From Nostoc minutum NIES-26 (GTDB lineage: Bacteria > Cyanobacteriota > Cyanobacteriia > Cyanobacteriales > Nostocaceae), in the NCBI GenBank assembly GCA_003326215.1, contig LXQD01000205.1, forward strand, positions 65,301 to 97,300: a DNA stretch of 32,000 bases. Reading direction: 5' to 3'. Under the pieces are notes generated by a model that was not told where the DNA came from, did no database searches, and was given only the letters and a program-made list of their open reading frames with translations. This document shows positions 15,964 to 31,472 of this stretch, piece after piece. Positions within the stretch are counted from its first letter, which is position 1. Each line of letters opens with the position of its first letter. The position numbers and the translations under genes were made by a program.

Positions 15964-17046
15964 ATGGCTATTTTTGGAAAAATGGGTATGTATTTTCATA
16001 CCCTGGTTACAGCTACGACGATCGCAATTGGAGCAATGGTAGCACCACCATCCACAGCAGCAACTTTCAAAGTGACTGTGGAAAATGTAGCTCCAGAAAG
16101 TGGGATTAACTTAGCTCATTTTTGGATAGGCTTTCATGATGGTAGTTTTGATGCTTTCAATGCAGGTGAACCTGCTTCAGGAGCAATCAAACTCATGGCT
16201 GAGGAACAAGTAATCGGTCTTGGTGCTAGAATTCTGGATGATTTCAATATTCCCACTCCACAACTTACTGATATAGTCATTTCCACCTTTGCAGCGGGTA
16301 CTGACTATGCTTTCATCTCCCCAGAACTTCAGTCTGCGTTAGAAGCAGGTAGCGATCGCGCCACCATATCTGCAATCCTGGATTCGATTTTTAATTCCGA
16401 CATCGACGTGAAGGATTTACCTCCCTCACCAGGAACCATTGCCGCTGAGTTCGCTAACAGTCAAGCCGGAAAAAATGGTGGCACACAAGATATCTTGTTC
16501 TATCCCACCCTATCGCCAATTCCCATAGTCCAGCCTCCTGGTACAACTGCTTCCAGACTTATTGAACTGGACGATCCTCAAAAAAATCGTTTCTTCAGTT
16601 ACGCTACAATGCTTTTTCCTAGTAACGATGCCTTCATTGGGAATGACAATCCAAAAGCGATTCAAGTTTTTGACGAACAAGGAAACTTCATAGGAGCAGA
16701 TTTCACAGTTTTTGGGAATCAAGCATGGGATGCAGGTACTGAAGTCAACGACGAGAAAATCTTTTCTATGCCTGCAAACATAGATGAAAACGGCACAATT
16801 CAACCCCATCCTGGTTTAAAAGCGCCTGGTGAAGGAGGAATTGTAGATACTCAATTGGATGGGTTAAGCTTTGCCAACGCTGATTTTTCCAAGCCAGGTT
16901 ATCAAATAGCACACATCACAATTACCAAGGTAGACGAACCAAGCACTAATCATGGTTTACTTGTTCTCGGCGGCTTGTTGTCGATAGTTACAATAATGAG
17001 CAAATTAAAGCAAGGAAGAAACAATTTTTCGTCAAGATTTAACTGA
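15964..17046 (+). CDS. Secreted spondin_N-like protein with a variant PEP-CTERM anchor
   Basis: The ORF is open from 15925, but its first 13 codons are repeat-derived. ATG 15964 follows ggagaaagagag. After the signal-like segment comes ATFKVTVENVAPESGINLAHFWIGFHDGSFDAFNAGEPAS, resembling cyanobacterial spondin_N-type proteins as I recall them. The C-terminus VDEPSTNHGLLVLGGLLSIVTIMSKLKQGR matches the PEP-CTERM layout. Confidence 0.6.
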   Translation: MAIFGKMGMYFHTLVTATTIAIGAMVAPPSTAATFKVTVENVAPESGINLAHFWIGFHDGSFDAFNAGEPASGAIKLMAEEQVIGLGARILDDFNIPTPQLTDIVISTFAAGTDYAFISPELQSALEAGSDRATISAILDSIFNSDIDVKDLPPSPGTIAAEFANSQAGKNGGTQDILFYPTLSPIPIVQPPGTTASRLIELDDPQKNRFFSYATMLFPSNDAFIGNDNPKAIQVFDEQGNFIGADFTVFGNQAWDAGTEVNDEKIFSMPANIDENGTIQPHPGLKAPGEGGIVDTQLDGLSFANADFSKPGYQIAHITITKVDEPSTNHGLLVLGGLLSIVTIMSKLKQGRNNFSSRFN

Positions 17047-17158
17047 AAAGTTAGCCGAAAAACGGAAAATTAAGATTTGTATTGTTTGAAAAAACCCTGC
17101 ATTACAGGTAGGTTTCTTTGCTCATACTCGACCAACCTTAAATTGCCCAATTATACAG

Positions 17159-17233
17159 GTTTGTAGTGAAGGATTTAACCCTCTTTCAGTAATACCTTCA
17201 GGGCTGAATCTGCCTTACTACAAACCCCCCCCC
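17159..17233. repeat. 68-nt imperfect long palindrome followed by a C9 tract
   Basis: The outer arms ggtttgtagt (17159-17168) and actacaaacc (17217-17226) are perfect, and the inner arms are partly complementary. A run of 9 C lies at 17225-17233. Confidence 0.6.
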
Positions 17234-17554
17234 AACTTACCTTTTCAGAACAACTCGCTTCAATAATTATCACAATCAGCTTAATCATTAATTTCACGTT
17301 CATGCATACGTGAATTATCAAGTTTCTTGTTCGTGTGACTAACACTTATGAAATACAGCTAGATAAAACTCTTATCTAGTACTCATTACACTCAATATTT
17401 GTGAGAAATCATCTGTTTCGTAAATAACTCACATGTACTGGTGAAGCCTTTAAATATAGCTAATTTCTAGCTTTGACCGAATTCTTTATTGGTCATCTCA
17501 CCACTGTTTAAGTCAAATTAATTCAACTACATCATTTCAACAGGTTCAAAAATT

Positions 17555-17995
17555 ATGTCTACATCAATTCCAACACCAATTATGCCCGTATCCACTCAAC
17601 TAGGAACACCTGAAATTATGTCTTTAGCAACTCCAACAGCAATTATACCTGTACCGACTCAAATAGAAACTCCTGAAATTCAAAAAGGTTTTAATCTTTT
17701 AGGATTAAAAGTCTCAGATATTGAATTGAACGAGCTGAAACATGGCAATACCGTTTCATTAGAAAGCAGACGACTAAGTGAAATAGGTTCAGTATTGATA
17801 CTTGCAGAAGCTCTTTCATCATTGCATTCAGTTAAAAACATTACCTTCAAAGATTTACCAAAAGTTGTTACAGAATCCACAAATTGTTCTGGCATTCCCG
17901 TCCATCGATGGAATGATGATATACTTGGTAAGTGTTACCTGCTGCTCACTTTAGTAGATGGTCAACCTGCATTCAAGATATCATCTCAAAAGTAG
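17555..17995 (+). CDS. Hypothetical protein with an N-terminal tandem 21-aa Pro/Thr-rich duplication
   Basis: A 146-aa ORF with an ATG start. No recognisable family motifs and no signal peptide. It contains two 63-nt repeats at 17558-17683. Confidence 0.45.
   Translation: MSTSIPTPIMPVSTQLGTPEIMSLATPTAIIPVPTQIETPEIQKGFNLLGLKVSDIELNELKHGNTVSLESRRLSEIGSVLILAEALSSLHSVKNITFKDLPKVVTESTNCSGIPVHRWNDDILGKCYLLLTLVDGQPAFKISSQK
17558..17683 (+). repeat. 2 x 63-nt tandem duplication inside the hypothetical CDS
   Basis: 17558-17620 encodes STSIPTPIMPVSTQLGTPEIM and 17621-17683 encodes SLATPTAIIPVPTQIETPEIQ. Confidence 0.85.
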
Positions 17996-18034
17996 CGTAA
18001 ATCCAGACCCTTCAAGCATATTATCTGGGTAAAT

Positions 18035-18172
18035 ATAGCAATCCTAAATCACTTGTGAAAATTTCTAATTCTTGTCTCTCAGTGTCCTCTGCTTCTCTGT
18101 GGTAGCCTACGGCAAGCCGCTATTGCGTCTACGTTAAAAAGATAACTTTCACAGTTGAAATAGGATTGCTAT
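18035..18172. mobile_element. 138-bp MITE-like element with 26-bp imperfect terminal inverted repeats, carrying a family B unit
   Basis: The left TIR is atagcaatcctaaatcacttgtgaaa (18035-18060). The right TIR, reverse-complemented, is atagcaatcctatttcaactgtgaaa (18147-18172), matching at 22 of 26 positions. The interior contains gtagcctacggcaagccgctattgcgtctacg. No ORF and no clear target-site duplication were seen. Confidence 0.55.
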
Positions 18173-18246
18173 CTCACAAGCATAATTCTTTGTATTACGC
18201 TAATTCCATCAATTAACTACACATTTTAGGTGAAAGGAATCTTACC

Positions 18247-18849
18247 GTGACCACATCAAAAGCTTATAAAGATTCGTCATTTTCACATGACGACCTGTTT
18301 CTATCGAAACAAATTATTATCAATCCTGTGACAGGCGATCGCATGACTATTCTTTGCTCCACCGCCGATAGTAATGGAGAATATTTTAAAGTTCAATTTG
18401 ACCTACCACCAGGAGCAAAAGGCAGTCCCTTGCATTACCACGGTTCTATGCATGAAACCTTTGAGGTTTTAAGAGGTTCGCTCAATATGGAACTTTGTGA
18501 AAAAGGCAACAGAAAAACATTGCGAACTGGAGATAAAGTATACGTTTACCCTGGTATGTATCATAGTTTCTGGAATGAATCTAATGACTGGGTAACATTC
18601 ATTAGTGAAATACGTCCTGCTGGGAATTTTGAGCAATTTTTAAAAGCTTGGTACGGTTTAGCTGGAGACAGAAAAGTAAACAAAGATGGAGTACCTACCA
18701 ATTTATTGCAACTAGCCTTAATTGTTCAGAAATCCGACACCATAGTTGTCGGACAACCGCCGTTTCTGCAAAAAATAATACTCAACATACTGACTAAAAT
18801 TGCTCGTATTTTAAAAGTAGAGCGAACCCTAGTCAAATATTGGCGGTAA
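18247..18849 (+). CDS. Cupin-fold protein
   Basis: Cupin motifs GSPLHYHGSMHETFEVLRG and YPGMYHSFWN are present. The GTG start is preceded by aggtgaaagga, and the start position is uncertain. Confidence 0.6.
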   Translation: MTTSKAYKDSSFSHDDLFLSKQIIINPVTGDRMTILCSTADSNGEYFKVQFDLPPGAKGSPLHYHGSMHETFEVLRGSLNMELCEKGNRKTLRTGDKVYVYPGMYHSFWNESNDWVTFISEIRPAGNFEQFLKAWYGLAGDRKVNKDGVPTNLLQLALIVQKSDTIVVGQPPFLQKIILNILTKIARILKVERTLVKYWR

Positions 18850-18868
18850 CATCAGCATCAACAAAAGT

Positions 18869-18916
18869 AATTCGTAGTTAAAGTAATTTTAATTACGAAT
18901 TACGAACTACGAATTA
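18869..18916. repeat. Inverted heptamer (AATTCGT / ACGAATT) arrays forming a 12-bp perfect stem
   Basis: taattcgtagtt (18869-18880) is complementary to aactacgaatta (18905-18916). It lies between the cupin stop and the membrane-protein start. Confidence 0.7.
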
Positions 18917-18930
18917 TCTAGGAGAAAACC

Positions 18931-19680
18931 ATGAAAGACCGCGTACAACTTTTGAGAATAACAGGTGCTGTGCTGACTTTTCTATCTATTTCCATCAACA
19001 TACCCTACATTTTGCTGATTCAAAATTTTGAGTATGATGATATTCTCCGCGCACCCACTAACTACATCCTCACTAAATTTCACGAAGGCGGTTCCGAACT
19101 CATCTTCACTTGGTTTCTTTTTGCTTTGTTAGCATTACTGTTTATTCCAGCCAGTACATTTCTACAAAAAGTACTCACAAGAGAAGATACTGTCTATTTG
19201 TCCGCAGCTACCTTAATGGGTGTGCTTTCTGGTTTGTTGCAGTCTATTGGACTCATGCGCTGGGTATTTGTCGTTCCTGTCTTAGCCGATTTGTATGTTC
19301 AACCAACAACCGATAGAGCAACTCGTTCTGCTGTTGCTGTTGTCTTTCAAGCAGTTCATCAATATGGTGGTGTTGTTATCGGCGAACATTTGGGACAAAC
19401 TTTACTCGCCTTATGGACATTGGGAGTTGGTGTGGCGATGCTTGGCTCACCCTTCTTTAAATCTTGGATTGCTTGGTTTGGTCTTTTTACAGTACCTCTT
19501 TTAATTCTCGGACAAACTGAATTACTTGCAACAGTTATTCCATCTATGCCAGTGTGGAAAGTCACTCCTATTGGTTTCATGCTTTGGGAAGTTTGGCTTT
19601 TAATAACAGGAGTCAGTCTACTTTTGACAGCAAATAAATATAAAAGTACCGACAAAACTCAACAACTTTCCAGAATTTGA
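18931..19680 (+). CDS. Multi-pass integral membrane protein, family not assignable by eye
   Basis: The ATG start is preceded by taggagaaaacc. There are about 6-7 hydrophobic helices, for example ITGAVLTFLSISINIPYILLI and LIFTWFLFALLALLFIPA. Confidence 0.7.
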   Translation: MKDRVQLLRITGAVLTFLSISINIPYILLIQNFEYDDILRAPTNYILTKFHEGGSELIFTWFLFALLALLFIPASTFLQKVLTREDTVYLSAATLMGVLSGLLQSIGLMRWVFVVPVLADLYVQPTTDRATRSAVAVVFQAVHQYGGVVIGEHLGQTLLALWTLGVGVAMLGSPFFKSWIAWFGLFTVPLLILGQTELLATVIPSMPVWKVTPIGFMLWEVWLLITGVSLLLTANKYKSTDKTQQLSRI

Positions 19681-19707
19681 AAATCAACAGTTCTCAGTCT
19701 TGAAGAA

Positions 19708-19887
19708 GAATTCAGAAGTTAGAATTTAGGAGTCAGACTAAAAAAAGTGGAAGATTTAGAGCCGCTACTAATAGAAAACCACTAAATAGAAGATTGACTA
19801 GTGGTCTTAAACCAAGCAATTCATCTACCATTCGTACAAAATTCAGAATTCAATTCTGACTCCTCACTCCTGAATTCTGTTGTGATA
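19708..19887. repeat. Heptamer-type repeat blocks in inverted orientation flanking ~125 bp
   Basis: The left block is gaattcagaagttagaatttaggagtcaga (19708-19737). The right block tctgactcctcactcctgaattc (19865-19887) reads gaattcaggagtgaggagtcaga when reverse-complemented. A palindrome tcagaattcaattctga lies at 19853-19869. Confidence 0.5.
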
Positions 19888-19908
19888 AATTACTAATTAA
19901 ATATAATC

Positions 19909-20664
19909 ATGATTGACACAAATCGTTGGATTGTCCGCTATCAATCCCATCCTAAAGTTCGTTTGCGCTTATTTTGCTTTCCTTATGCTGGAGGTAGTAC
20001 CTCTACATATCGTAAATGGTCGGAGTTATTACCATCAGATATTGAAGTTTGTCCTGTACAACTTCCTGGACGGGAAAACAGATCGATGGAAGCTCCTTTC
20101 ACTCATGTTACACCGCTGGTTGAGAGTTTATTACCAGTTTTAAACTCATATCTAGACCTTCCTTATGCTTTTTTTGGCCACAGTATGGGAGCCTTAATTA
20201 GTTTTGAATTAGCCCGTCACATTAGAAAACAACGCTACCCCGAACCTCAACATTTATTTGTTTCTAGCCGTCGCTCTCCTCATCTTCCTTCTTCAGAGCC
20301 TCCTATTCATAAACTACCTGAAACCGCTTTTTGGGAGCAACTTCGCCTCTATGATGGTGTACCCGATACACTATTACAAAGTTCTCAAATAGCCAAGTTG
20401 TTTCTACCACTGTTGCGAGCAGACTTTGCCATTCATGAAACATATAAATACACCCCAGGCACTCAATTTAATTACCCAATAACAGCCTTTGGCGGGTTAC
20501 ACGATCGCAAAGTCGGCTCTGAAGAAATTATGGCTTGGCGAGAGTTAACTAATAGTGATTTCTACCTTCACTTATTTCCTGGCAATCACTTATTTTTACG
20601 TAAGGAGTACCAGCAAATTTTATCAGTTATAGCTCGAAATCTGAGTCAAAAAATTGCAGCTTAA
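19909..20664 (+). CDS. Type II (editing) thioesterase
   Basis: Motifs LFCFPYAGGS, the nucleophile elbow GHSMGALISFELA, GGLHDRKV (Asp) and FPGNHLFL (His). At 251 aa, its length is typical for this family. Confidence 0.9.
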   Translation: MIDTNRWIVRYQSHPKVRLRLFCFPYAGGSTSTYRKWSELLPSDIEVCPVQLPGRENRSMEAPFTHVTPLVESLLPVLNSYLDLPYAFFGHSMGALISFELARHIRKQRYPEPQHLFVSSRRSPHLPSSEPPIHKLPETAFWEQLRLYDGVPDTLLQSSQIAKLFLPLLRADFAIHETYKYTPGTQFNYPITAFGGLHDRKVGSEEIMAWRELTNSDFYLHLFPGNHLFLRKEYQQILSVIARNLSQKIAA

Positions 20665-20707
20665 CTTTTTAAAATGAAACGACTATCAATTAAAAAATTT
20701 TCTGTAG

Positions 20708-20735
20708 GGTGCGTTATGCTTCTGGCTAACGCACC
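20708..20735 (+). terminator. 9-bp perfect hairpin after the thioesterase gene (dispersed-repeat type)
   Basis: The arms are ggtgcgtta (20708-20716) and taacgcacc (20727-20735), with a 10-nt loop. It sits 44 nt after the stop and has no U-tract. Confidence 0.35.
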
Positions 20736-20792
20736 ATGACAGATTAGTTCAAAATGGTACATTACATCAGACTAATCACCAGCTTAAACATC

Positions 20793-21893
20793 ATGGAAAT
20801 TAACAAATTGCTGAATACTAACATCGAATCTTCAATGATTTTAATGACACCAATGCAGATCAAAGAGCAATTGCCTTTAACCAAAGTTGCTACAGAAACT
20901 GTATTGCAAGGTAGACAAGCTATACAAAATATACTTGACGGCAAAGATTCCCGAAAATTTATTATTGTTGGCCCTTGCTCTATCCATGATTTCGATGCTG
21001 CTTTAGAATATGCAGAAAAATTGAAAATTATTGCCGAACAGGTAAAAGACAAACTGTTGATTGTGATGAGAGTTTACTTTGAAAAACCTAGAACTACAAT
21101 TGGATGGAAAGGATTAATTAATGACCCCGACTTAGATGGCTCATTTAACATTCAAAAAGGATTATTTACGGCACGCAATTTGTTACTCAAAATTGCTGAA
21201 TTAAAATTACCTGCTGCTACAGAAGCTTTAGATCCTGTAACACCTCAATATTTCTCCGATTTAATTTCTTGGGCTGCAATTGGAGCGCGCACAATTGAAT
21301 CTCAAACCCATCGGGAAATGGCAAGCGGATTATCCATGCCAATAGGTTTTAAAAATGGTACTGATGGTAATATTCAAGTTGCTCTTGATGCTATTCAATC
21401 AGCTAATAAACTCCACCATTTTTTAGGAATTGACCAAAGAGGTCAAGTTTGTACATTTAAAGCAAAAGGAAATAACTACGGTCATATTATTTTACGTGGG
21501 GGAGATGGTAAACCGAATTTTGATGCACCTACTGTAGCTTGGGTAGAGAAGAAGCTAGAGGGACTTAAGCTACCTCAAAGAATCATCATTGACTGTAGTC
21601 ATGGAAATTCTTATAAAGATCATAAGCTACAGGCCACTGTCTTTAATAACGTTCTCCAGCAAATTGCAGATAGGAATAAATCAATTGTTGGCATGATGCT
21701 TGAGTCCAACTTGTATGAAGGAAATCAGAAGATACCTACAGATTTAAAAAAATTGAAGTATGGCGTATCTGTTACAGACAAATGTATTAGTTGGGAAGAA
21801 ACAGAAGAAATAATTCTATCTGCACATCACAAGTTAAGCAGAATGGTTGTATCTGGAACTCCTCTGCGAAACTTATTGACAACTGTAAGATAG
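20793..21893 (+). CDS. 3-deoxy-D-arabino-heptulosonate-7-phosphate (DAHP) synthase, type I-alpha (AroG/F/H-like)
   Basis: The protein is collinear with E. coli AroG as I recall it: IIVGPCSIHD, MRVYFEKPRTTIGWKGLINDP, IGARTIESQTHREMASGLSMPIGFKNGTDG, IILRGG and MLESNLYEGNQ. The ORF is open from 20754. ATG 20793 or ATG 20835 fits the AroG N-terminus better. Confidence 0.88.
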   Translation: MEINKLLNTNIESSMILMTPMQIKEQLPLTKVATETVLQGRQAIQNILDGKDSRKFIIVGPCSIHDFDAALEYAEKLKIIAEQVKDKLLIVMRVYFEKPRTTIGWKGLINDPDLDGSFNIQKGLFTARNLLLKIAELKLPAATEALDPVTPQYFSDLISWAAIGARTIESQTHREMASGLSMPIGFKNGTDGNIQVALDAIQSANKLHHFLGIDQRGQVCTFKAKGNNYGHIILRGGDGKPNFDAPTVAWVEKKLEGLKLPQRIIIDCSHGNSYKDHKLQATVFNNVLQQIADRNKSIVGMMLESNLYEGNQKIPTDLKKLKYGVSVTDKCISWEETEEIILSAHHKLSRMVVSGTPLRNLLTTVR

Positions 21894-22221
21894 CTATTGT
21901 CAATACCATGCTTCTTGCAAAAAATCAAAAAATTGGGGATGTCATTCTGTAAGTGAAAGCTTGCCACAGAGAGGCGTTCCCATAGAATAGGGTAGCATTT
22001 TGCGGAATATTTTCACTCGTAAAACATGATATCTTAAGTATTTTTGTAATAAGTTTTGAGTCTTAAATATATAAAGCTTACTACTATTTATAGCAAACAA
22101 ATATCCTGAAAATCACAAATCTTTCCCTTGTAAATGTATTTAAATCAGCTTAAATTAATAATTATCACCCTGAAAAATTTCTGAAAAATTATCAATCTAT
22201 AACAATACAAATAGGTGATTT

Positions 22222-22467
22222 ATGACTAGACAAGAAATCTTTAGCAAAGTTCAAGCTGTTGTCGCCGAAGAACTAGCCAATGAACAACAAAAAGTTACCC
22301 CAGATGCTAATCTAACTTTAGATTTAGGAGCAGATTACTTAGATTTAATCGCAATGTTTCAAGCATTAGAAGATGCTTTTGGTACAAAAATTCCTCCTAA
22401 GGAAGCAAAGCAACTTTTAACAGTACAAGAAGTTGTAAATTACATAGGTCAGACAGTTATTTTTTGA
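22222..22467 (+). CDS. Acyl carrier protein-like protein with Tyr in place of the phosphopantetheinyl Ser
   Basis: The 81-aa protein is collinear with E. coli AcpP. DLGADYLDLIAMFQALEDAF aligns with [20 protein letters not shown], and the codon is tac at 22336-22338. Confidence 0.8.
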   Translation: MTRQEIFSKVQAVVAEELANEQQKVTPDANLTLDLGADYLDLIAMFQALEDAFGTKIPPKEAKQLLTVQEVVNYIGQTVIF

Positions 22468-22476
22468 GTTTTAACC

Positions 22477-23733
22477 ATGATAAATAAAAATTTAAGAAGG
22501 GTTGTAGTTACAGGTATGGGAGCTATTACCCCTCTAGGAAATTCGGTGAAAGAGTATTGGGAAGGGTTGATTGCTGGACGCAGTGGTATTGATGCAATTA
22601 CCCACTTTGATGCTTCTTTGCATACTTGTAAAATCGCAGGTGAAGTTAGAGGCTTTGACCCTTACGACTATTTAGAACGCAAAGATGTCAAGCATATATC
22701 GCGTTTTTCTCAATTTGCAGTTAGTGCAAGTCTACAAGCGATCGCTAATGCTGGGTTAAAAATCAACGACTCAAATGCTACTCAAGTTGGCATTATTATA
22801 GGCAACGGCATCGGCGGTCTGCAAGTGATCGAGGAACAGCAAAAAATCTTCCTGGCTCAAGGGCCCAAACGCTGTAGTCCTTTTACAATTCCCATGACAA
22901 TCTCTAACATCGCAGCCGGACTCACAGCAATTTATACAGGGGCTAAAGGGCCGAACTTTTGCACTGTTACCGCTTGCGCTGCTGGTTCTAATGCGATTGG
23001 AGAAGCTTTTCGCTTAATTCAAACAGGCCAAGCTCAGGCAATGATTTGTGGTGGTACAGAAGCAGCGATTACACCTCTATGTATAGCTGCCTTCAGTTCT
23101 GCCAAAACCCTAACAACTAGAAATGACGAACCCACACGAGCCTCTCGTCCCTTTGATGCAGAGCGAAATGGCTTCGTCATGGGAGAAGGAGCGGGGATTC
23201 TACTCATAGAGGATTTAGAACATGCTCTGCGTCGGGGAGCTACTCATATTTATGCAGAGATTGTTGGCTATGGCCTGACTTGTGATGCTTACCATATAAC
23301 CACTCCCACACCCAGCGGTGAGGGAGCCACCAGAGCTATGGAACTAGCCTTAAAAGATGCTGGCTTGTTCCCCAACGAAGTCAGCTATATTAACGCTCAT
23401 GGCACTAGCACTGTAGCTAACGATGCCACAGAAACCTTAGCTATTAAGCAAGCTTTAGGAAACCGTGCCCTCGAAATTCCTATTAGTTCCACCAAATCCA
23501 TGATTGGCCATCTTTTAGGTGCATCTGGAGGCGTTGAAGCTATTGCCACAGTCTTAACAGTAGGTCTTGATTTAATTCCACCAACAATCAATTTAGATCG
23601 GCCAGATCCAAAGTGCGATTTAGACTATGTTCCTTACCAAAGCAGAAGTCAAAGAGTAGATGTTGCTCTTTCTAACTCTTTTGGCTTTGGAGGACATAAC
23701 GCTTCTTTAGCTTTTAAAAAGTTTGAAGACTAA
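22477..23733 (+). CDS. fabF: Beta-ketoacyl-ACP synthase II (FabF-like), cluster-embedded paralogue
   Basis: Motifs RVVVTGMGAITPLG, TVTACAAGSNAIGEA (Cys), NAHGTSTVANDATE (His), KSMIGHLLGASG (His) and FGFGGHNASLAF. Confidence 0.9.
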   Translation: MINKNLRRVVVTGMGAITPLGNSVKEYWEGLIAGRSGIDAITHFDASLHTCKIAGEVRGFDPYDYLERKDVKHISRFSQFAVSASLQAIANAGLKINDSNATQVGIIIGNGIGGLQVIEEQQKIFLAQGPKRCSPFTIPMTISNIAAGLTAIYTGAKGPNFCTVTACAAGSNAIGEAFRLIQTGQAQAMICGGTEAAITPLCIAAFSSAKTLTTRNDEPTRASRPFDAERNGFVMGEGAGILLIEDLEHALRRGATHIYAEIVGYGLTCDAYHITTPTPSGEGATRAMELALKDAGLFPNEVSYINAHGTSTVANDATETLAIKQALGNRALEIPISSTKSMIGHLLGASGGVEAIATVLTVGLDLIPPTINLDRPDPKCDLDYVPYQSRSQRVDVALSNSFGFGGHNASLAFKKFED

Positions 23734-23736
23734 TAA

Positions 23737-23785
23737 AGGCAGAAGGCAGAGGGCAGGAGGCAGAAGGTAGAAGTCAGAAGTCAAA
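23737..23785. repeat. STRR array, 7 x AGGCAGA-like heptamers
   Basis: The units are aggcaga aggcaga gggcagg aggcaga aggtaga agtcaga agtcaaa. The array starts immediately after the FabF-like stop. Confidence 0.85.
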
Positions 23786-23849
23786 AGTTATTATTTTTCT
23801 CCCCTATATCCCTCATCTCCCTCACAAGAATAACTAGCAAATAAAGCAG

Positions 23850-24860
23850 ATGAAATCCTTAGTAAGACAAGGTGTTGTTCTCACGGGGACTGGCTCTGCG
23901 GTTCCAGATACGTGCTTGGACAATCATCAACTCAACCAAATGGTAGTTACTTCTGATGATTGGATAACGACTCGCACAGGAATTCGCCGCCGCCATCTTC
24001 TTGCGCCGAAGAATTCGCTCACAGCTATGGCTACTGAAGCTGCTCAAAAGGCTATAGCGATGGCAGGTATAGCACCACAAAACTTAGATTTGATTATTTT
24101 AGCTACATCGACTCCTGATGATTTGTTTGGGAATGCTAGTCAAATTCAAGCTCGACTGGGAGCTACCCAAGCCGTAGCTTTTGATTTGACAGCAGCTTGC
24201 TCTGGTTTTGTGTTTGGTTTGGTAACTGCCGCCCAATTTATGCGGACTGGAGCCTATCAAAATGTTCTCCTCATCGGTGCTGAAGTGCTTTCTCGGTGGG
24301 TAGATTGGTCTGATAGACGTACTTGCGTTCTCTTTGGCGATGGAGCAGGAGCAGTAGTTTTACAAGCAAGTGAATACGATTGTCTCTTGGGTTTTCAACT
24401 TCATACTGATGGTACGCAAAATCAATATCTAAAATTGGGATTTCAAGAACAAGAGAAACTACTAATTGATAGTATCAGGGTTGGTCAAGGTACATACCAA
24501 CCAATTGCAATGAACGGACAAGAAGTTTATCGCTTTGCCGTTCAAAAAGTCCCTGAAGTTATTGAAAAGGCACTATACCGAGCCGGATTAGATATTGAAC
24601 AAGTAGACTGGCTATTGATGCATCAAGCCAATCAGCGAATTTTAAATGCTGTGGCCGAACGTTTAAATCTTCCCGAAGAAAAAATCATTAGCAACGTAGC
24701 AAACTATGGAAACACTTCTGCTGCTTCAATTCCTCTAGCTTTGGATGAAGCTGTTCGTCGAGGGCAAATCAAACCACATGATATTATCGCTCTGGCTGGC
24801 TTTGGCGCTGGGCTTTCTTGGGGTGCTGCGATTTTTGAATGGGGTTCTCTTAATTCGTAA
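23850..24860 (+). CDS. fabH: Beta-ketoacyl-ACP synthase III (FabH-like) with an intact Cys-His-Asn triad
   Basis: Motifs GTGSAVP, DLTAACSGFVFGL (Cys), LMHQANQRIL (His), NYGNTSAASIPLAL (Asn) and GFGAGLSWG. The last three codons and the stop lie inside an AATTCGT heptamer array. Confidence 0.9.
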   Translation: MKSLVRQGVVLTGTGSAVPDTCLDNHQLNQMVVTSDDWITTRTGIRRRHLLAPKNSLTAMATEAAQKAIAMAGIAPQNLDLIILATSTPDDLFGNASQIQARLGATQAVAFDLTAACSGFVFGLVTAAQFMRTGAYQNVLLIGAEVLSRWVDWSDRRTCVLFGDGAGAVVLQASEYDCLLGFQLHTDGTQNQYLKLGFQEQEKLLIDSIRVGQGTYQPIAMNGQEVYRFAVQKVPEVIEKALYRAGLDIEQVDWLLMHQANQRILNAVAERLNLPEEKIISNVANYGNTSAASIPLALDEAVRRGQIKPHDIIALAGFGAGLSWGAAIFEWGSLNS

Positions 24861-24877
24861 TTCGTAATTCGTAATTC
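24851..24877. repeat. STRR array, about 3.5 x AATTCGT
   Basis: The array taattcgtaattcgtaattcgtaattc overlaps the FabH-like stop codon at 24858-24860. Confidence 0.85.
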
Positions 24878-24973
24878 AGATTCTTTTTTGATGATTGGTT
24901 GTGAAGTGTAGGGAGAATTTTTATTTTGTCTCCCTTGTAATTGGTTTTTTTACGAGTTTAAAGTAACCCGCGT

Positions 24974-26698
24974 ATGAATACACTATCTCTACAACAGAAC
25001 ATCACGCGTTCTTGGCAAGTGCCTTTTACTGGCAATTCAAATTCAGACAATTTAAATTCAATTGTAACTGTAGGCGATCGCAATCTGACTATAGACGAGG
25101 TGGTGAATGTAGCCCGTCATGGCACACAGGTGCGTTTAACTGATAATGTAGATATCCTAAAAGGCGTGCAAGCATCGTGTGACTACATCGATCGTGCAGT
25201 TGAAACAGGCCAACCAATATACGGAGTTACATCTGGCTTTGGTGGAATGGCACATGTTGTCATTTCCCGCGAACAAGCAGCCGAACTTCAAACTAACTTA
25301 ATTTGGTTTCTAAAATCTGGAGCGGGTGCGAGATTGCCGTTGGCAGATGTCCGCGCCGCCATGCTTTTGCGTGCCAATTCACACTTATATGGTGCATCGG
25401 GTATACGACTCGAATTGATTCAACGAATTGAAACTTTTTTAAATGCTGGTGTGACACCGTATGTCTATGAGTTTGGCTCTATTGGTGCTAGTGGCGATTT
25501 AGTACCTTTGTCTTATATTACTGGGGCGCTCATAGGTTTAGATCCCAGCTTTACAGTTGACTTCGACGGTAGAGAAATGGATGCTCCTACAGCGCTGTGT
25601 CGGCTGGGTTTGCAGCCTTTGCAACTGCAACCGAAAGAAGGCTTGGCAATGATGAACGGCACTTCTGTGATGACAGCGATCGCAGGTAATTGCGTGTATG
25701 ATGCTAGAGTCTTACTTGCACTAGCAATGGGCGTACATGCCTTAGCCATCCAAGGTTTATACGGGACAAATCAATCGTTCCACCCGTTTATCCATAAACA
25801 CAAACCCCATCCCGGTCAACTGTGGGCAGCAGACCAGATGTTTTCCCTGCTTAAAGGTTCATACTTAGTCCGTGAAGAATCAGATGGCAAGCATGAATAT
25901 CGCGGTCAAGAACTAATCCAAGATCGTTATTCTCTGCGCTGCCTTCCACAGTATATGGGGCCAATTGTTGACGGAATATCGGAGATTGCCGAGCAAATCG
26001 AGCTAGAAATGAACTCAGTCACCGATAATCCATTGATTGATGCCAACAAACAAGCTAGTTATCATGGTGGCAATTTTCTCGGACAGTATGTAGGCGTGAC
26101 AATGGATCGCTTGCGCTACTATATAGGGCTATTAGCTAAACACATCGACGTACAGATCGCGCTGCTTGTTTCACCAGAGTTTAGCAACGGACTCCCACCT
26201 TCTTTAGTTGGCAATCTAGAGCGTAAAGTCAACATGGGACTTAAAGGTTTGCAAATTAGTGGAAACTCGATCATGCCACTATTGACCTTCTATGGAAATT
26301 CTTTAGCCGATCGCTTTCCTACCCATGCCGAACAATTTAATCAAAACATTAACAGCCAAGGATATGTTTCAGCAAATCTGACACGTCGTTCTGTAGACAT
26401 ATTTCAATATTATATGGCGATCGCGCTGATGTTTGGAGTCCAAGCCGCTGACTTGCGTACATATAAAATGACTGGTCACTACGATGCACGTACATGCCTT
26501 TCTACCGGAACTTTAGAGTTGTATGCGGCAGTTCGTCAAGTAGTTGGACATCAGCCAACATCTCTGCGTCCATACATTTGGAACGATAACGAACAGTCCT
26601 TGGACGAGCATATCGCCTTGATTTCAGCTGATATCGCTGCTGGCGGTCTAATTGTGCAAGCAGTTAGCGATATTTTGTCAAGCTTGAAGTCAATATAA
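24974..26698 (+). CDS. pal: Phenylalanine ammonia-lyase (MIO-dependent, cyanobacterial short PAL type)
   Basis: The MIO triad ASG sits in GSIGASGDLVPLSYITG (25487-25495). The Phe-selectivity pair F-L sits in NLIWFLKSG (25307-12). The protein is near-collinear over its whole length with the Nostoc punctiforme and Anabaena variabilis PAL sequences as I remember them. Confidence 0.92.
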   Translation: MNTLSLQQNITRSWQVPFTGNSNSDNLNSIVTVGDRNLTIDEVVNVARHGTQVRLTDNVDILKGVQASCDYIDRAVETGQPIYGVTSGFGGMAHVVISREQAAELQTNLIWFLKSGAGARLPLADVRAAMLLRANSHLYGASGIRLELIQRIETFLNAGVTPYVYEFGSIGASGDLVPLSYITGALIGLDPSFTVDFDGREMDAPTALCRLGLQPLQLQPKEGLAMMNGTSVMTAIAGNCVYDARVLLALAMGVHALAIQGLYGTNQSFHPFIHKHKPHPGQLWAADQMFSLLKGSYLVREESDGKHEYRGQELIQDRYSLRCLPQYMGPIVDGISEIAEQIELEMNSVTDNPLIDANKQASYHGGNFLGQYVGVTMDRLRYYIGLLAKHIDVQIALLVSPEFSNGLPPSLVGNLERKVNMGLKGLQISGNSIMPLLTFYGNSLADRFPTHAEQFNQNINSQGYVSANLTRRSVDIFQYYMAIALMFGVQAADLRTYKMTGHYDARTCLSTGTLELYAAVRQVVGHQPTSLRPYIWNDNEQSLDEHIALISADIAAGGLIVQAVSDILSSLKSI

Positions 26699-26744
26699 TT
26701 CGTAATTTCATGCAGACAATCTCGGCTAGAAAGGAGATTTAATA

Positions 26745-28295
26745 ATGAATATTGCACAAAATGTAGAACTTGGTTGTTATCTTTTTCCTAATAAACCAGC
26801 GCTCATCTTTGAAGAAGAATCTTTCACATACAAAGACTTGAACGAAAGAGCAAATCGTGTTGCTAACGGTCTACGCAGTTTGGGAATTAGGCGTGGAGAG
26901 CGTGTAGCTTTGTTTTTGCCAAACATTCCAGAATTTGTCTTTTCTTATCTTGGCATTCTGAAAATTGGTGCGATTGCTGTCTCAGTTAACGTCATGCTCA
27001 AAAGTGATGAAGTAAGCTATATTCTCAATGATTGTGCTGCCAAAGTAATCATTACAACAGAGTCTCAAAGTGAGTATGTGCAAGAGGCAGATTTAATCGC
27101 CTTACAACACATTTTAATTACAGAAGGCACAGCTAAAAAAGGTATTAGTCTAACAGAACTAATGGCAAAAGCTTCTCCTGAAGCACACGCAGTGGAAATG
27201 GCTCGCCACGCTCCTGCAAGTATCCTCTACACATCAGGCACTACAGGCTTTCCCAAAGGAGCTACACTTTCTCATGGCAATGTTCTTTTCAACAGCTATA
27301 GTGCTAACTGTTGTTATCGTATTCAAAAGAGCGATCGCTTACTACTTTACTTACCTTTATTCCATTGTTTTGGTCAAAATGCAATTCTCAACGCTAGTCT
27401 ATCTGCTTGTGCAACCCTGATATTACAACGCCGATTTGACTTAGAACAAGTCTTGAAAACCATCACTGTACATCAAGTGACAATGTTATTTGGAGTACCG
27501 ACAGTATTCATTAAACTGCTGAATATGGATACATCTGACTGTAACCTGAAAAATATTCGCTATTACTTTTCAGCAGCAGCACCCATGCCTTCTGAAGTAG
27601 CACAGCGTTGGTATCAAAAGTATGGAATTGTAATTCATGAAGGGTATGGTTTAACAGAAACATCGCCATTTGCTGCTTATAATCACAACTTGAAATACAA
27701 ACTAGGTAGCGTTGGTACTTCCATTGCAAATGTAGAAATAAAGATTGTTGATGGTAATGGTTATGAAGTACAAGCAGGCGAGTTAGGTGAAATAGTTATT
27801 AAAGGGCCAAACGTCATGCTTGGTTATTGGAATCGTCCTTTTGAAACAGCAGAGGTTATTAAAAATGGTTGGTTCCATACTGGTGATATTGGTCGGATGG
27901 ATGAAGAAGGTTTTTTCTACATCGTTGACCGCTTAAAAGACATGATTATTTTCTCTGGATTTAAAGTTTACCCAACAGAAGTTGAAAATATTATTTATCA
28001 ACATCCAGCGGTTGCTGAAGTAGCTGTATATGGAGTTGACGATCGCCTCAAAGGCGAGATTGTCAAAGCAAATATTGTCCTTAAAACTGGTCATCCAATA
28101 ACAGAACAACAAATCATTGACTTTTGTTATCAAAAGATGGCAGCTTACAAAATTCCCCGCGTAATTAAGTTTGTAGATTCAATTCCCAAAAACTCAACTG
28201 GTAAAGTATTGAAGCGAGTTTTACGTCAGGAATCAACAGTAGTCAGTAGTAGAGACGCGATTAATCGCGTCTGTACAGGAAGTAGTTGTCAGTAG
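26745..28295 (+). CDS. Aryl/acyl-CoA ligase (4-coumarate/cinnamate-CoA ligase-like)
   Basis: Motifs LYTSGTTGFPKGATLSHGN, GYGLTETS, HTGDIGRMDEEGFFYIVDRLKDMIIFSGFKVYPTEVE and PKNSTGKVLKR. The C-terminal ~19 aa (VVSSRDAINRVCTGSSCQ) are encoded by a dispersed repeat. Confidence 0.88.
   Translation: MNIAQNVELGCYLFPNKPALIFEEESFTYKDLNERANRVANGLRSLGIRRGERVALFLPNIPEFVFSYLGILKIGAIAVSVNVMLKSDEVSYILNDCAAKVIITTESQSEYVQEADLIALQHILITEGTAKKGISLTELMAKASPEAHAVEMARHAPASILYTSGTTGFPKGATLSHGNVLFNSYSANCCYRIQKSDRLLLYLPLFHCFGQNAILNASLSACATLILQRRFDLEQVLKTITVHQVTMLFGVPTVFIKLLNMDTSDCNLKNIRYYFSAAAPMPSEVAQRWYQKYGIVIHEGYGLTETSPFAAYNHNLKYKLGSVGTSIANVEIKIVDGNGYEVQAGELGEIVIKGPNVMLGYWNRPFETAEVIKNGWFHTGDIGRMDEEGFFYIVDRLKDMIIFSGFKVYPTEVENIIYQHPAVAEVAVYGVDDRLKGEIVKANIVLKTGHPITEQQIIDFCYQKMAAYKIPRVIKFVDSIPKNSTGKVLKRVLRQESTVVSSRDAINRVCTGSSCQ
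28237..28278 (+). repeat. Family A repeat (CAGTAGT x2 plus GTAGAGACGCGATTAATCGCGTCTGTACAG) forming the 3' end of the CoA-ligase CDS
   Basis: The sequence is cagtagtcagtagtagagacgcgattaatcgcgtctgtacag. The core agacgcgattaatcgcgtct is a perfect 20-bp palindrome. Confidence 0.85.
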
Positions 28296-30094
28296 TATTT
28301 TCCCCTCAGCTCTGTTACCCCCAATCCCTAAAGATCGTGAATTTAAAAAGTATTACCAAAACCTTAAATCCATTGGAGCAGTTGCAAAAAAGTACTGCTA
28401 TCCAACCCAATCTACTTTCACTTGACCAGACAAGCGATTTAACTGTTGCAGCAGCTTTAGTCAAGACACTGGAAGATTTAGGAGTCCGCTATGCTTTTGG
28501 CCTGTTCGGAGGCGGAATCACACCCCTTGTTGCTAGCTTAGAGCAAAGTTCAATCCAAGTACTGCAATTTCGTCATGAAGCCGGAGCCGCATTTGCAGCT
28601 ATTGAGTCTTACTTTGCTAGCGGACACCCAGTTGTAGTATTCAGCACAACTGGCCCAGGTATTACTAACGCTTTGACAGGATTGTTTGCTGCTCGTTGGG
28701 AAGGAGCAAAAATCATTTTCCTCTCGCCTTGCACCTCTGCAACACAACGCGGACGCTGGGCTTTTCAAGAAACCAGTCTGTACACCATGTCTAATACAGG
28801 CATTTTTACTTCAGGAACATTATTTCATTACGCCACCACTGTTGAATGTAGCTCGGAACTGCCAAAAATTGCTCGTAAGCTCTTGGCAGGTATGGGAAAA
28901 CCAGGGGGCTTTGTAGCTCATATCAGTATCCCTAGAGCAATTCAGACAAGTTCGCTGATGACACCATTACCTCGCGTGAATTTCTCTCAATCTTCGGTAA
29001 CTGCTGGGGAAGATGCTATCTGCAAGTCTTTACAACTGCTGTGTGAGGGGCCATTTGCCATTTGGGTTGGTTTCGGTGCTAGAGGTGCAGCCGCGGAAAT
29101 CCGCCAACTTGCTGAGAGAACCAAAGCTGCGGTGATGTCATCCTCTCGTGGTAAGGGGATATTTCCTGAAGATCATCCTCAGTTTGTGGGTGTTACAGGC
29201 TTCGGAGGACATAGCTCTGTTGTGAAGTATATGCAAGAGCATCGTCCTTTACGCGTACTGGTTTTGGGAACTCGGCTAGGTGAATTTACCTCGTTTTGGA
29301 GTCCGGTTATGGTTCCTTCACGCGGGTTTATACACGTAGATATTGACCCGGAAGTGCCAGGAACTGCTTATCCAGCAGCGGAGACATTTGCCGTCCACTC
29401 CGATATTGGAGCTTACGTTAAAGCATTGCTTAAGTATTTTCCACAAACTTATGGTTTGTCACCAATATTACCTTTACCTCGTGGCGATCGCCAATTAATC
29501 AAGCCCTATGGAGAAGGTCTAGTACGCCCTGAATTATTGATGGATGCAATTCAAAGGGTAATTGTTGAAAAAAGCGATGCAGTAGTAATGACCGAGGCAG
29601 GTAACTCCTTTGCTTGGGGAACCCACACGCTCAGATTTACTACACCAGGTCGTTACCGGGTAAGTACTGGGTTTGGCTCGATGGGGCACGCTGGCACGGG
29701 TATTTTAGGTGCTGCACTGGCGCGAAATCGTAAGGCGATCGCCATTCTTGGTGATGGTGCTATGCTCATGAACAGCGAAATTACTACCGCTGTCAAACAC
29801 AAAATTCCTGCCGTCTGGATTGTACTCAATGATGCACGTTACAACATGTGCGATCAAGGCATGAATATGGAAGGATTCTATGGTGTAGATGCAGAGATAT
29901 CCACCGCAGATTTCGTGATGATTGCCCGTGGTATGGGAGCTGATGGCATTCGTGTAGACAGCGAGTTTGATGTCGAAGCAGCCTTAGAAACAGCTCTAGC
30001 CTCTACTGTACCCTTTGTTGTTGACGTAGCGATCGACCCGACACGACCAGCACCAATTGGCACTCGAATTAACAGTTTAATCAGTAGTCAGTAG
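28286..30094 (+). CDS. Thiamine-diphosphate-dependent enzyme (acetolactate-synthase/carboligase family)
   Basis: An N-terminal Pyr-domain segment LVKTLEDLGVRYAFGLFGG and the catalytic Glu context FRHEAGAAFAA are present. The ThDP motif is GDGAMLMNSEITTAVKHKIPAVWIVLND, with GDG at 29750-29758. There is no in-frame ATG near the 5' end. The start could be TTG 28286 (overlapping the upstream stop), GTG 28337, or TTG 28373/28382. Confidence 0.85.
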   Translation: MSVVFSPQLCYPQSLKIVNLKSITKTLNPLEQLQKSTAIQPNLLSLDQTSDLTVAAALVKTLEDLGVRYAFGLFGGGITPLVASLEQSSIQVLQFRHEAGAAFAAIESYFASGHPVVVFSTTGPGITNALTGLFAARWEGAKIIFLSPCTSATQRGRWAFQETSLYTMSNTGIFTSGTLFHYATTVECSSELPKIARKLLAGMGKPGGFVAHISIPRAIQTSSLMTPLPRVNFSQSSVTAGEDAICKSLQLLCEGPFAIWVGFGARGAAAEIRQLAERTKAAVMSSSRGKGIFPEDHPQFVGVTGFGGHSSVVKYMQEHRPLRVLVLGTRLGEFTSFWSPVMVPSRGFIHVDIDPEVPGTAYPAAETFAVHSDIGAYVKALLKYFPQTYGLSPILPLPRGDRQLIKPYGEGLVRPELLMDAIQRVIVEKSDAVVMTEAGNSFAWGTHTLRFTTPGRYRVSTGFGSMGHAGTGILGAALARNRKAIAILGDGAMLMNSEITTAVKHKIPAVWIVLNDARYNMCDQGMNMEGFYGVDAEISTADFVMIARGMGADGIRVDSEFDVEAALETALASTVPFVVDVAIDPTRPAPIGTRINSLISSQ

Positions 30095-30252
30095 TAGAGA
30101 CGCGACGCCAGTCGCTACAACGGGGGGAACCCCCCTTCGGGTGACGCTCGCAGGCTCGCTAACGCTACGCTAACACAGTTGCCTGCGGAGGGAAACCCTC
30201 CCGCAGCACTGATTCACCGCAACGCGCTGGCTCATTAATCGCGTCTGTACAG
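30082..30252 (+). mobile_element. Family A repeat split by a nested 129-bp insertion (MITE-in-repeat)
   Basis: The left half cagtagtcagtagtagagacgcga lies at 30082-30105 and the right half ttaatcgcgtctgtacag at 30235-30252. Together they reconstitute the intact 28237-28278 copy exactly. The insert at 30106-30234 has its own hairpins, ggggggaacccccc and ctgcggagggaaaccctcccgcag. Confidence 0.75.
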
Positions 30253-30341
30253 TTGTTATCAGATTAATTGCGTCTGTTGTCATTAGTTATTCTCCGTGTC
30301 CTCGCGTCCCCTCATTACCCCACAACCAAAGGAAATTTCCC

Positions 30342-31472
30342 ATGATCTATCCACCCGTAGGTATTCGCTCAATTGCAATTAATTTTCCTAGTGTCATTCG
30401 CACTAATGATTATTGGCGCAAAAATTACCCTGATTTAGTTGCAATGGCAGAGGAAAAAAGTCTATCAAAGGTGTTTTCGCCTGCTGATTCTACCCCCAGC
30501 AATCAGTTTGAACAGGTAATGACACCGTATCTCAAAGACCCATTCCGTGGTACTATTGAGCGCCGAGTTCTCGGTTCGGATGAGTCATCGCTAACACTAG
30601 AGTATCAAGCAGCCAAGAATGCGATCGCAGCGGCAAATCTATCTCCAGAAGAAATCGATTTGATGATTGTTGCTTCACTCTGGCCGGAAAATATTCTACC
30701 TGGCAATGCCGCCTTTCTTGCTGGTCAACTCGGTCTGCGCGGTGCTGCTTGGAATTTGGATTCAACCTGTTCTAATGCTATGGTTGCTCTGCAAAACGCC
30801 ACTGCACTGGTGCGAACTGGAGAGTATCGCAATGTGCTGGTTGTGGTTTCTTGCACTTACTCTCGCTTTACCGATGAAAACGATACCCTCTCGTGGTTTT
30901 TCGGTGACGGTGCTGGAGCTTTTGTGGTTGCGCCGCTAAAACCAAGCCAGGGAATTCTTGGCAGCAAAATTGTGAATACATCTGCAACTTGTGGCACCTT
31001 CTATAATGAATTAACTATGGATGCTGAGGGCAAGCCAAGGATGTTAATTAGAGCAGCAAAAAATACTAACAGAGTACTGAGTGAGACTGCTGTGGATTAC
31101 CTACGCGAGTGCTGCTTGGGTGCTGTTGCTGCTGCTGGTGTTACCCTAGAGCAAATTCAATTTTTTGCTTTTAATACACCCACTGCCTGGTATTCGCATC
31201 TCTGCACGCAGGCGTTAGGCATCGAACCAGAGCGGACGATTAACCTTTACCCCTACTATGCAAACATTGGGCCAATGCTACCCATCGCCAATCTTTACCA
31301 CGGCGCACAATTAGGCAAGATTCACGAAAACGACTTAGTTCTCGTTTACACTGTTGGTTCTGTATCTAATGCTGCTGCAACTGTAATGCGCTGGGGCGAT
31401 GTTGCTCTAAGTACAGCACCCGCAACCTCAGCTAACCTGACAGATGTGTTGCCGAAACTGGTGCTAGTCTAA
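30342..31472 (+). CDS. KAS III (FabH)-like acyltransferase, candidate furanolide-synthase-type enzyme
   Basis: The fold is FabH-like, with the Cys in NLDSTCSNAMVAL (codon 30768-30770) and FFGDGAGAF. The HQAN His position reads AFNTP, and the NYGNTSAAS region reads YYANIGPML. Confidence 0.85.
   Translation: MIYPPVGIRSIAINFPSVIRTNDYWRKNYPDLVAMAEEKSLSKVFSPADSTPSNQFEQVMTPYLKDPFRGTIERRVLGSDESSLTLEYQAAKNAIAAANLSPEEIDLMIVASLWPENILPGNAAFLAGQLGLRGAAWNLDSTCSNAMVALQNATALVRTGEYRNVLVVVSCTYSRFTDENDTLSWFFGDGAGAFVVAPLKPSQGILGSKIVNTSATCGTFYNELTMDAEGKPRMLIRAAKNTNRVLSETAVDYLRECCLGAVAAAGVTLEQIQFFAFNTPTAWYSHLCTQALGIEPERTINLYPYYANIGPMLPIANLYHGAQLGKIHENDLVLVYTVGSVSNAAATVMRWGDVALSTAPATSANLTDVLPKLVLV

Follow-up and report, generated by a model that had tools for sequence, protein, structure and literature searches.

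What can an acyl carrier protein (ACP) do once it has lost the serine that holds its phosphopantetheine arm? This question is raised by a small gene in a stretch of 32,000 nucleotides (nt) from the cyanobacterium Nostoc minutum NIES-26 (contig LXQD01000205.1, positions 65,301 to 97,300), hereafter the window; positions are counted from its first letter and all its features described below lie on the + strand. The gene (22222..22467) encodes an 81-amino-acid (aa) paralogue of AcpP, the carrier of fatty-acid synthesis (FAS), with tyrosine at the phosphopantetheine site, which we call ACP-Y. It stands at the head of an operon and is followed by genes for ketosynthases of the FabF and FabH types. 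The tyrosine, Tyr39, is invariant in each relative that was found, which is far beyond chance. We propose, with moderate confidence, that ACP-Y is a pseudo-carrier without pantetheine and works by binding to another protein.

Results

An AcpP paralogue with tyrosine at the attachment site

The translation of the gene (MTRQEIFSKVQAVVAEELANEQQKVTPDANLTLDLGADYLDLIAMFQALEDAFGTKIPPKEAKQLLTVQEVVNYIGQTVIF) includes the motif DLGADYLDL. The Tyr39 codon, TAC at 22336..22338, occupies the position of the serine of the DSL motif, and a single A-to-C transversion would convert it into TCC. ACP-Y matches PF00550 with 43 bits (cut-off 20.8) and, over residues 1-77, the NCBIfam ACP models TIGR00517 with 76.9 bits (cut-off 70.45) and NF002150 with 83.3 (66). 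Its alignment to solved FAS ACPs is gapless, with DLGADYLD opposite DLGADSLD and Tyr39 opposite the phosphopantetheine serine. An AlphaFold2 model built on 17 homologues (predicted local distance difference test, pLDDT, 82.9) predicts the four-helix ACP bundle, with helices at residues 3-17, 39-53, 59-62 and 68-79, helix II starting at Tyr39; the closest PDB match retrieved with Foldseek is the T. thermophilus ACP 1x3o (template-modelling score, TM, 0.92). A preliminary description of the window had recognised an AcpP-like protein of 81 aa with tyrosine at the DSL serine, and both points are borne out, the first by the full-length match above the ACP cut-offs and the resemblance to a solved ACP, the second by the translation and the gapless alignments. 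ACP-Y therefore has the score and the four-helix fold of an ACP, and it lacks the attachment serine of the DSL motif and the strongly acidic helix II-III surface.

Conservation and selection

Since TAC is one transversion from TCC, the tyrosine might reflect a sequencing error or a recent strain-specific lesion in a normal ACP. The preliminary description had listed such a dead ACP among its possibilities, and its proposed checks included the comparison of orthologous loci and the ratio of nonsynonymous to synonymous substitutions (dN/dS) across orthologues. Searching 5.8 billion proteins for ACP-Y yielded 16 homologues with 63-99% identity, from Nostoc, Anabaena cylindrica, Desmonostoc and metagenomes, all with tyrosine; the protein that is 99% identical comes from a separate record and likewise has tyrosine. 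Among the 16 loci read as DNA, serine is nowhere restored and the codon is TAC in 9 and TAT in 7; both codons being used, synonymous change has occurred at this position without replacement. No copy contains a stop or a frameshift. In seven genomes that share the gene arrangement of the window (type A, see below), the median dN/dS of ACP-Y by the Nei-Gojobori method is 0.205 (range 0.06-0.29), the values for FabF, FabH and PAL being 0.129, 0.123 and 0.089, and across 13 sequences pairwise omega averages 0.25 (bootstrap confidence interval 0.16-0.40). Values of about 0.2-0.25 indicate purifying selection. A census of 389 species-level Nostocaceae genomes placed ACP-Y in 10 of them (11 loci, 5 genera), every time in a biosynthetic cluster, and when 1.84 billion representatives were searched with a profile (HMM), no close family came to light apart from one representative and a distant relative, P0030. 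Tyrosine is thus invariant in 17 homologous proteins and in the 16 loci, which span three cluster types and five genera or more; both of its codons are used, and the gene is under purifying selection. The dead-ACP reading is therefore refuted, and we give error or lesion a negligible probability.

Might ACP-Y nevertheless carry a cargo through another residue? We rejected an alternative attachment serine, as no serine position is conserved across the ACP-Y family; the conserved threonines are those common to ordinary ACPs. A further possibility is that Tyr39 or another residue is covalently modified, either O-phosphopantetheinylated or O-acylated as an activated aryl ester, so that ACP-Y would be a carrier after all. 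Consistent with this, tyrosine specifically recurs at the site in several unrelated ACP-like families (found by a search for the pattern DLGADYLD, so that tyrosine is there by construction), and adenylating enzymes and phosphopantetheinyl transferases (PPTases) are encoded near ACP-Y in some loci. However, we know of no PPTase that modifies tyrosine, and an acyl group esterified to tyrosine would fall short of the ketosynthase active site, which lies at the far end of the pantetheine tunnel. Moreover, other Ser-less ACP domains have glutamate, proline, aspartate or phenylalanine at this position, and in one cluster type a normal ACP is encoded beside ACP-Y. We therefore consider a modified-tyrosine carrier very improbable.

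Origin of the cassette and change of the ACP-Y surface

The host genome also has a normal acpP-fabF pair with the DSL motif and a separate fabH elsewhere. Compared with these housekeeping copies, ACP-Y is 43% identical to AcpP, and the FabF and FabH of the window are 67% and 69% identical to their counterparts. All 16 Tyr-ACPs group together in the maximum-likelihood tree, in a single clade (99/96) whose long stem arises among the AcpPs of cyanobacteria, which fits one Ser-to-Tyr event and fast change, then constraint. The best Ser-bearing matches of the ACP-Y profile among the 1.84 billion representatives are cyanobacterial AcpPs of Coleofasciculus, Chroococcidiopsis, Phormidium and Prochlorothrix. 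The FabF paralogues lie on long stems within the photosynthetic-cyanobacterial FabF clade (98/95) and outside the Nostocaceae housekeeping clade. Given these tree placements and identities, the ACP-Y/FabF/FabH cassette looks like an old duplicate of a cyanobacterial acpP-fabF pair plus fabH.

The net charge of the ACP-Y family is -5 (median of 17), versus -14 in cyanobacterial AcpPs, and that of the helix II-III docking segment is -2 to -3 versus -10 to -11. At the positions that we take to correspond to E. coli ACP numbering, ACP-Y retains the acidic counterparts of D35, D38, E47 and E48, whereas those of E41, E49, D51, D56, E57 and D70 are neutral and those of E53 and E60 are lysine. With these acidic positions lost and the charge reduced, the canonical acidic recognition surface is largely erased. 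Several cavity-lining positions hold bulkier residues (V43F, A68V/I), as would suit a protein with no acyl chain left to enclose.

Gene contexts of ACP-Y

ACP-Y is found in three types of context, in which it heads ketosynthase operons. Type A, the arrangement of the window, is shared by N. punctiforme PCC 73102 and five further genomes and has the order h146 (a small protein), in some distance, then DAHP (3-deoxy-D-arabino-heptulosonate 7-phosphate) synthase, not always present, ACP-Y, FabF, FabH, phenylalanine ammonia lyase (PAL), a CoA ligase, a thiamine diphosphate (ThDP) enzyme related to ScyA and an enzyme resembling β-ketoacyl-ACP synthase (KAS) III. Type B comprises two genomes and one metagenome contig (L029 1-20000, also L030 and L049). 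Here FabF and an h146 homologue are divergently transcribed, and there follow ACP-Y, FabH and a synthase with the domain order fatty acyl-AMP ligase (FAAL), ACP, ketosynthase (KS), acyltransferase (AT), ketoreductase (KR), ACP. This FAAL-polyketide synthase (PKS) is 46-49% identical to the PKS encoded upstream in the window; furanolide genes are absent from the type B clusters. On the FabF/h146 side, type B clusters also encode DUF4336, a B12-binding radical SAM enzyme, an HMGL-like enzyme and an NHL-repeat protein. In type C (L153 1-5839), ACP-Y precedes a FabF start stub and then an aryl-polyene-like type II PKS operon, which consists of KR, a true 139-aa ACP with serine, AcpS, a FabA-like dehydratase (DH), KS, an ApeI-like DH and a second KS. 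The one class of enzyme common to all operons headed by ACP-Y is that of the thiolase-fold ketosynthases.

The ketosynthase gene next to ACP-Y has been lost on several loci. In Desmonostoc, FabF, FabH and PAL are deleted and a FabF stub of 43 aa is left, with ACP-Y intact; the remnant still holds the KAS III-like furanolide synthase. Stubs of FabF after the ACP-Y junction were read in L028 at about 9900-9800 of the - strand (MISKHIRR...), in L157 at 926-958 (MISQSLGKVI and stop) and in L153 from 1464 onward (MINKKIRKVIV...), and these losses are at least two separate events. Between the ACP-Y copies of L153 and L157, both without FabF, dN/dS is 0.17 at a dS of 0.74. The maintenance of ACP-Y without the FabF paralogue, once beside a genuine carrier, argues for a non-carrier function of its own. 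The A. cylindrica locus (L007/L008 10001-15400) is decaying as well: the thioesterase and DAHP synthase genes are fragmentary, ACP-Y and FabF are intact, and FabF is followed by an insertion sequence (IS) element, with transposase genes of the DDE_Tnp_1 and DDE_5 families.

The junction with the ketosynthase gene

In the window, the stop codon of ACP-Y (TGA, 22465-22467) is separated from the ketosynthase start codon (ATG, 22477) by a 9-nt spacer without a Shine-Dalgarno sequence (junction 22465..22479, from the comparison of loci). The preliminary description had presented ACP, FabF and FabH as a tightly spaced set. The 9-nt gap is exact, but FabF and FabH are 116 nt apart, so only the first junction is tight. 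The arrangement TGA-GTTTTACTT-ATG-AT is kept in type A, where it leads to FabF, and in type B, where it leads to FabH; it also precedes the FabF stubs in the Desmonostoc locus and in type C. ACP-Y itself has a Shine-Dalgarno-like AGGTGA 5' of its start codon (22213..22218, from the sequence and the upstream alignment), and (A/G)GAGGT or AGGTG stands at the same distance from the start in almost all loci. The conserved junction without a Shine-Dalgarno sequence suggests that translation of the next cistron is coupled to that of ACP-Y. Although the two genes share a frame in the window, we rejected stop read-through to an ACP-Y-ketosynthase fusion, as L022 and L024 have spacers of 8 and 10 nt, respectively, and L025 has a second in-frame TGA.

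Such a junction would also suit a relic leader cistron, that is, a gene whose translation, from its own ribosome-binding site, drives re-initiation at a ketosynthase gene that has none, the protein itself having little function. A dN/dS of about 0.2 and an invariant DLGADYLDL, however, point to selection on the protein sequence, and even in loci where nothing but a short FabF stub comes next, the frame is unbroken and under constraint (omega 0.17). We regard the leader cistron as improbable, and a function of the ACP-Y protein as the better account.

The FabF and FabH paralogues

The FabF (KAS II) paralogue (22477..23733; TIGR03150, 624 bits) is catalytically intact, with the active-site residues C167, H308, K340 and H345, and it still has the basic ACP-docking residues K69, K72, K131 and R132. 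The FabH (KAS III) paralogue (23850..24860; NF006829, 420 bits) is also intact, its Cys, His and Asn motifs being kept, and like FabF it retains basic residues for ACP docking. Since both are catalytically intact, they must use another holo-carrier. Housekeeping AcpP is the simplest candidate; carriers within the megasynthases, a source which the preliminary description had raised, may also supply them.

These two genes bear on a different reading, in which ACP-Y would serve as a decoy or throttle for primary fatty-acid synthesis or belong to a self-resistance cassette. Once the cluster is switched on, it would bind the housekeeping ACP-dependent enzymes, and the FabF and FabH paralogues would be by-pass or resistant copies. 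Indeed, the window holds intact duplicates of the essential FabF and FabH (67% and 69% identity) inside a biosynthetic cluster, and a duplicated target of the FabF type within a cluster is a well-established sign of self-resistance to inhibitors of FAS, among them the thiotetronates. The persistence of ACP-Y without the FabF paralogue would also suit a decoy. On the other hand, ACP-Y has lost most of the acidic docking surface that FAS enzymes use, and we know of no product of ACP-Y clusters that targets FAS. Cyanobacterin has been described as an inhibitor of photosynthesis (PMC12395478). Overall, we hold a decoy or self-resistance role to be unlikely, though it is the most credible of the alternatives to a pseudo-carrier in general.

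Surroundings of the operon in the window

Upstream of ACP-Y, family models identify a DAHP synthase (20754..21893), which would supply aromatic precursors; a DAHP synthase gene, macA, belongs to the maculalactone furanolide cluster (PMC13288894). Downstream lies the furanolide core (24974..31472), recognised by family models and synteny and made up of PAL, the CoA ligase, the ScyA-related ThDP enzyme and the KAS III-like furanolide synthase. These genes are syntenic with the ncl region of N. punctiforme PCC 73102, at 82-87% identity. Taking the core furanolide gene set as defined in PMC13288894, the window has adjacent homologues of the core proteins CybB, C, E and F (ammonia lyase, CoA ligase, ThDP enzyme and furanolide synthase), as expected of an ncl cluster.

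The small protein h146 (17555..17995), which has no recognised fold, is encoded near ACP-Y in most of the compared loci. It has a variable N-terminus rich in proline and threonine and a confidently predicted C-terminal domain of about 105 aa with four helices and a three-stranded sheet, for which the comparison with PDB folds gave no match at E < 0.001. The family occurs in 51 of the 389 Nostocaceae genomes, versus 10 for ACP-Y. Where ACP-Y is absent, h146 stands beside homologous clusters of PKS and nonribosomal peptide synthetase (NRPS) genes or directly upstream of FabH-like genes (L104-L113). A role as dedicated partner of ACP-Y is thus unsupported, the family being commoner than ACP-Y and found in clusters that lack it.

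An alignment of the 260 nt 5' of ACP-Y from 14 loci revealed blocks common to the type A loci, TCCCTTG ... TTAAATTAATAATTATCA (22124..22167 in the window), which, judging from this conservation, might be the promoter of the ACP-Y operon. The best promoter-like site in a consensus scan lies elsewhere (21961-21988), and neither the count of such sites nor that of promoters and terminators scanned around ACP-Y was higher than in shuffled sequence. No Rfam match indicating a regulatory RNA upstream of ACP-Y was obtained at E <= 0.1 within 17000-25000.

Other Ser-less ACP-like proteins

Among the best 150 profile hits (P0019-P0167), 44 of 216 ACP-like domains are Ser-less at the attachment position, the replacements being Glu (9), Pro (6), Asp (5), Phe (5), Tyr (4) and others. 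Many of these hits contain between two and six ACP-like repeats in tandem. The distant relative P0030, from a JGI metagenome, is a single-domain protein of 86 aa that also reads DLGADYLD.

The DLGADYLD pattern search returned several further families, whose gene surroundings are unrelated to those of ACP-Y. An Omnitrophica-type family (L044, L053-L094) is coherent and comprises about 40 diverged members of 86-88 aa with the ACP fold; the genes stand in a conserved block with an ArsR-type regulator, the Tyr-ACP, an overlapping 133-aa protein without assigned family and a CarD-like protein, and without FAS genes. A Firestonebacteria-type group (78-90 aa) follows an RND efflux operon and precedes a TPR protein, and another group of 86-aa ACP-like proteins is separate from it. 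In a further group, exemplified by a Terrimicrobiaceae genome, the DLGADYLD domain makes up the C-terminus of proteins about 410 aa long. The loci of these three further groups are L045-L047 and L096-L103; L050-L052; and L043, L083, L085 and L095. Taken together, these sequences suggest that proteins of the ACP fold with tyrosine for serine turn up repeatedly, in several uncultured phyla. That ACPs with an aromatic residue for serine are widespread constitutive mimics of acyl-ACP, acting as adaptors, is a speculative view which we find rather unlikely. Still far less probable is that ACP-Y and the DLGADYLD families of Omnitrophica, Firestonebacteria and elsewhere form a new class of pantetheine-free carriers with Tyr39 as covalent site.

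Discussion

How could an ACP fold without its cofactor be of use in a ketosynthase operon? We propose that a cyanobacterial paralogue of the FAS AcpP lost the phosphopantetheine serine once, by a change to tyrosine at the base of a small cyanobacterial clade, and that purifying selection has kept the protein thereafter, with the four-helix fold retained. Because the attachment site is gone, ACP-Y would be unable to carry acyl chains and most likely binds another protein. The contact might be made by Tyr39, at the N-terminus of helix II, and by the largely uncharged, hydrophobic face of this helix, which would take the place of the acyl-pantetheine arm. Heading the operon, ACP-Y has a ribosome-binding site of its own for translation; FabF or FabH comes next, after a conserved 9-nt spacer that has no such site. 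The preliminary description had named a non-pantetheinylated ACP-fold partner or scaffold as one of its options, and it is this option that the conserved tyrosine and the selection on the protein favour, the binding itself being what we infer. Given a binding role, our leading, if tentative, candidate for the partner is a ketosynthase-type enzyme encoded in the cluster. The housekeeping ACP-dependent enzymes are possible partners but appear less likely, and a protein outside these two classes, or one not yet named, seems slightly less likely again.

Several observations weigh against this proposal. That Tyr39 is unmodified is an assumption. The loss of acidic residues from helix II-III argues against a simple docking of ACP-Y on the basic ACP sites that the FabF paralogue has kept, and the FabF paralogue is not an obligate partner, because ACP-Y is retained after the loss of FabF. 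The dN/dS of ACP-Y is somewhat above that of the neighbouring genes, and homologous PKS/NRPS clusters exist without ACP-Y. Furthermore, the four core furanolide genes suffice for the formation of furanolides in E. coli (PMC13288894), so that ACP-Y would not be needed for furanolide chemistry, and ACP-Y, FabF and FabH have no assigned role in it. ACP-Y also occurs in clusters without furanolide genes.

Whatever its partner, the database label 'acyl carrier protein' is wrong for ACP-Y, and cluster mining would count it as a type II FAS or PKS carrier. This mislabel alters the reading of the published nostoclide locus and of two other cluster types: no carrier of their own adjoins the FabF and FabH paralogues of the set, and what heads the operon would be a pantetheine-free protein of the ACP fold. 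Functional Ser-less ACPs have hardly been described outside apicomplexan mitochondria, and ACP-Y is a bacterial family under clear selection. Since the tractable N. punctiforme has an orthologue in an inducible cluster, the role of an ACP fold without cofactor is directly testable.

Comparison with known systems

The closest known system is housekeeping AcpP (PF00550, TIGR00517; the copy of the same genome and 1x3o), which shares with ACP-Y its length, four-helix fold, gapless alignment and the motif DLGAD-x-LD. AcpP is encoded in a cyanobacterial acpP-fabF operon, ACP-Y is likewise followed by fabF, and ACP-Y descends from a cyanobacterial AcpP. In contrast to AcpP, however, ACP-Y has tyrosine for serine, a net charge of -5 instead of -14 and neutral or basic residues at eight acidic positions of helices II-IV. 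It is separated from the ketosynthase gene by 9 nt, versus about 190 nt for housekeeping AcpP, and it is restricted to biosynthetic clusters in 10 of 389 genomes of the family.

The second system is the nostoclide locus. Krumbholz et al. 2022 (PMC9324945), who name the PAL NclD, describe the ncl (nostoclide) subcluster in the pks1 region of N. punctiforme PCC 73102. The gene order of this locus is that of the window (ACP-Y, FabF, FabH, PAL, CoA ligase, ThDP enzyme, KAS III-like enzyme), and its ACP-Y is 76% identical to that of the window and also has tyrosine. With PAL as NclD, ACP-Y, FabF and FabH would be NclA-C. The main text of PMC9324945 makes no mention of the tyrosine or of a role for ACP-Y, FabF or FabH. 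Our literature search found nothing on Npun locus tags or on Ser-less ACPs in cyanobacteria, and no paper that mentions the tyrosine of ACP-Y or describes a biosynthetic cluster of bacteria with a Ser-less ACP. The two loci differ in their flanking assembly line, as the window has a PKS/NRPS different from the nvl of N. punctiforme.

The third system is the mitochondrial ACP (mACP) of Plasmodium falciparum, in which the attachment serine is replaced by Phe113, a residue that contributes to the binding of Isd11 (Falekun et al., eLife 2021, PMC8547962); the authors found Ser-less ACPs only in Apicomplexa and in the chromerid Vitrella. Like mACP, which is functional without phosphopantetheine, ACP-Y combines the ACP fold, a conserved aromatic residue instead of the attachment serine and selection on the protein. 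The settings are different. The partner of mACP is the LYR protein Isd11, in the biogenesis of Fe-S clusters, whereas ACP-Y sits in secondary-metabolite operons with ketosynthases, and, unlike in the setting of mACP, the cell that encodes ACP-Y also has a canonical FAS and a canonical AcpP. Because ACP-Y branches among the cyanobacterial AcpPs, its origin is independent of that of apicomplexan mACP. By analogy, ACP-Y would therefore resemble mACP in mechanism only, and not in descent.
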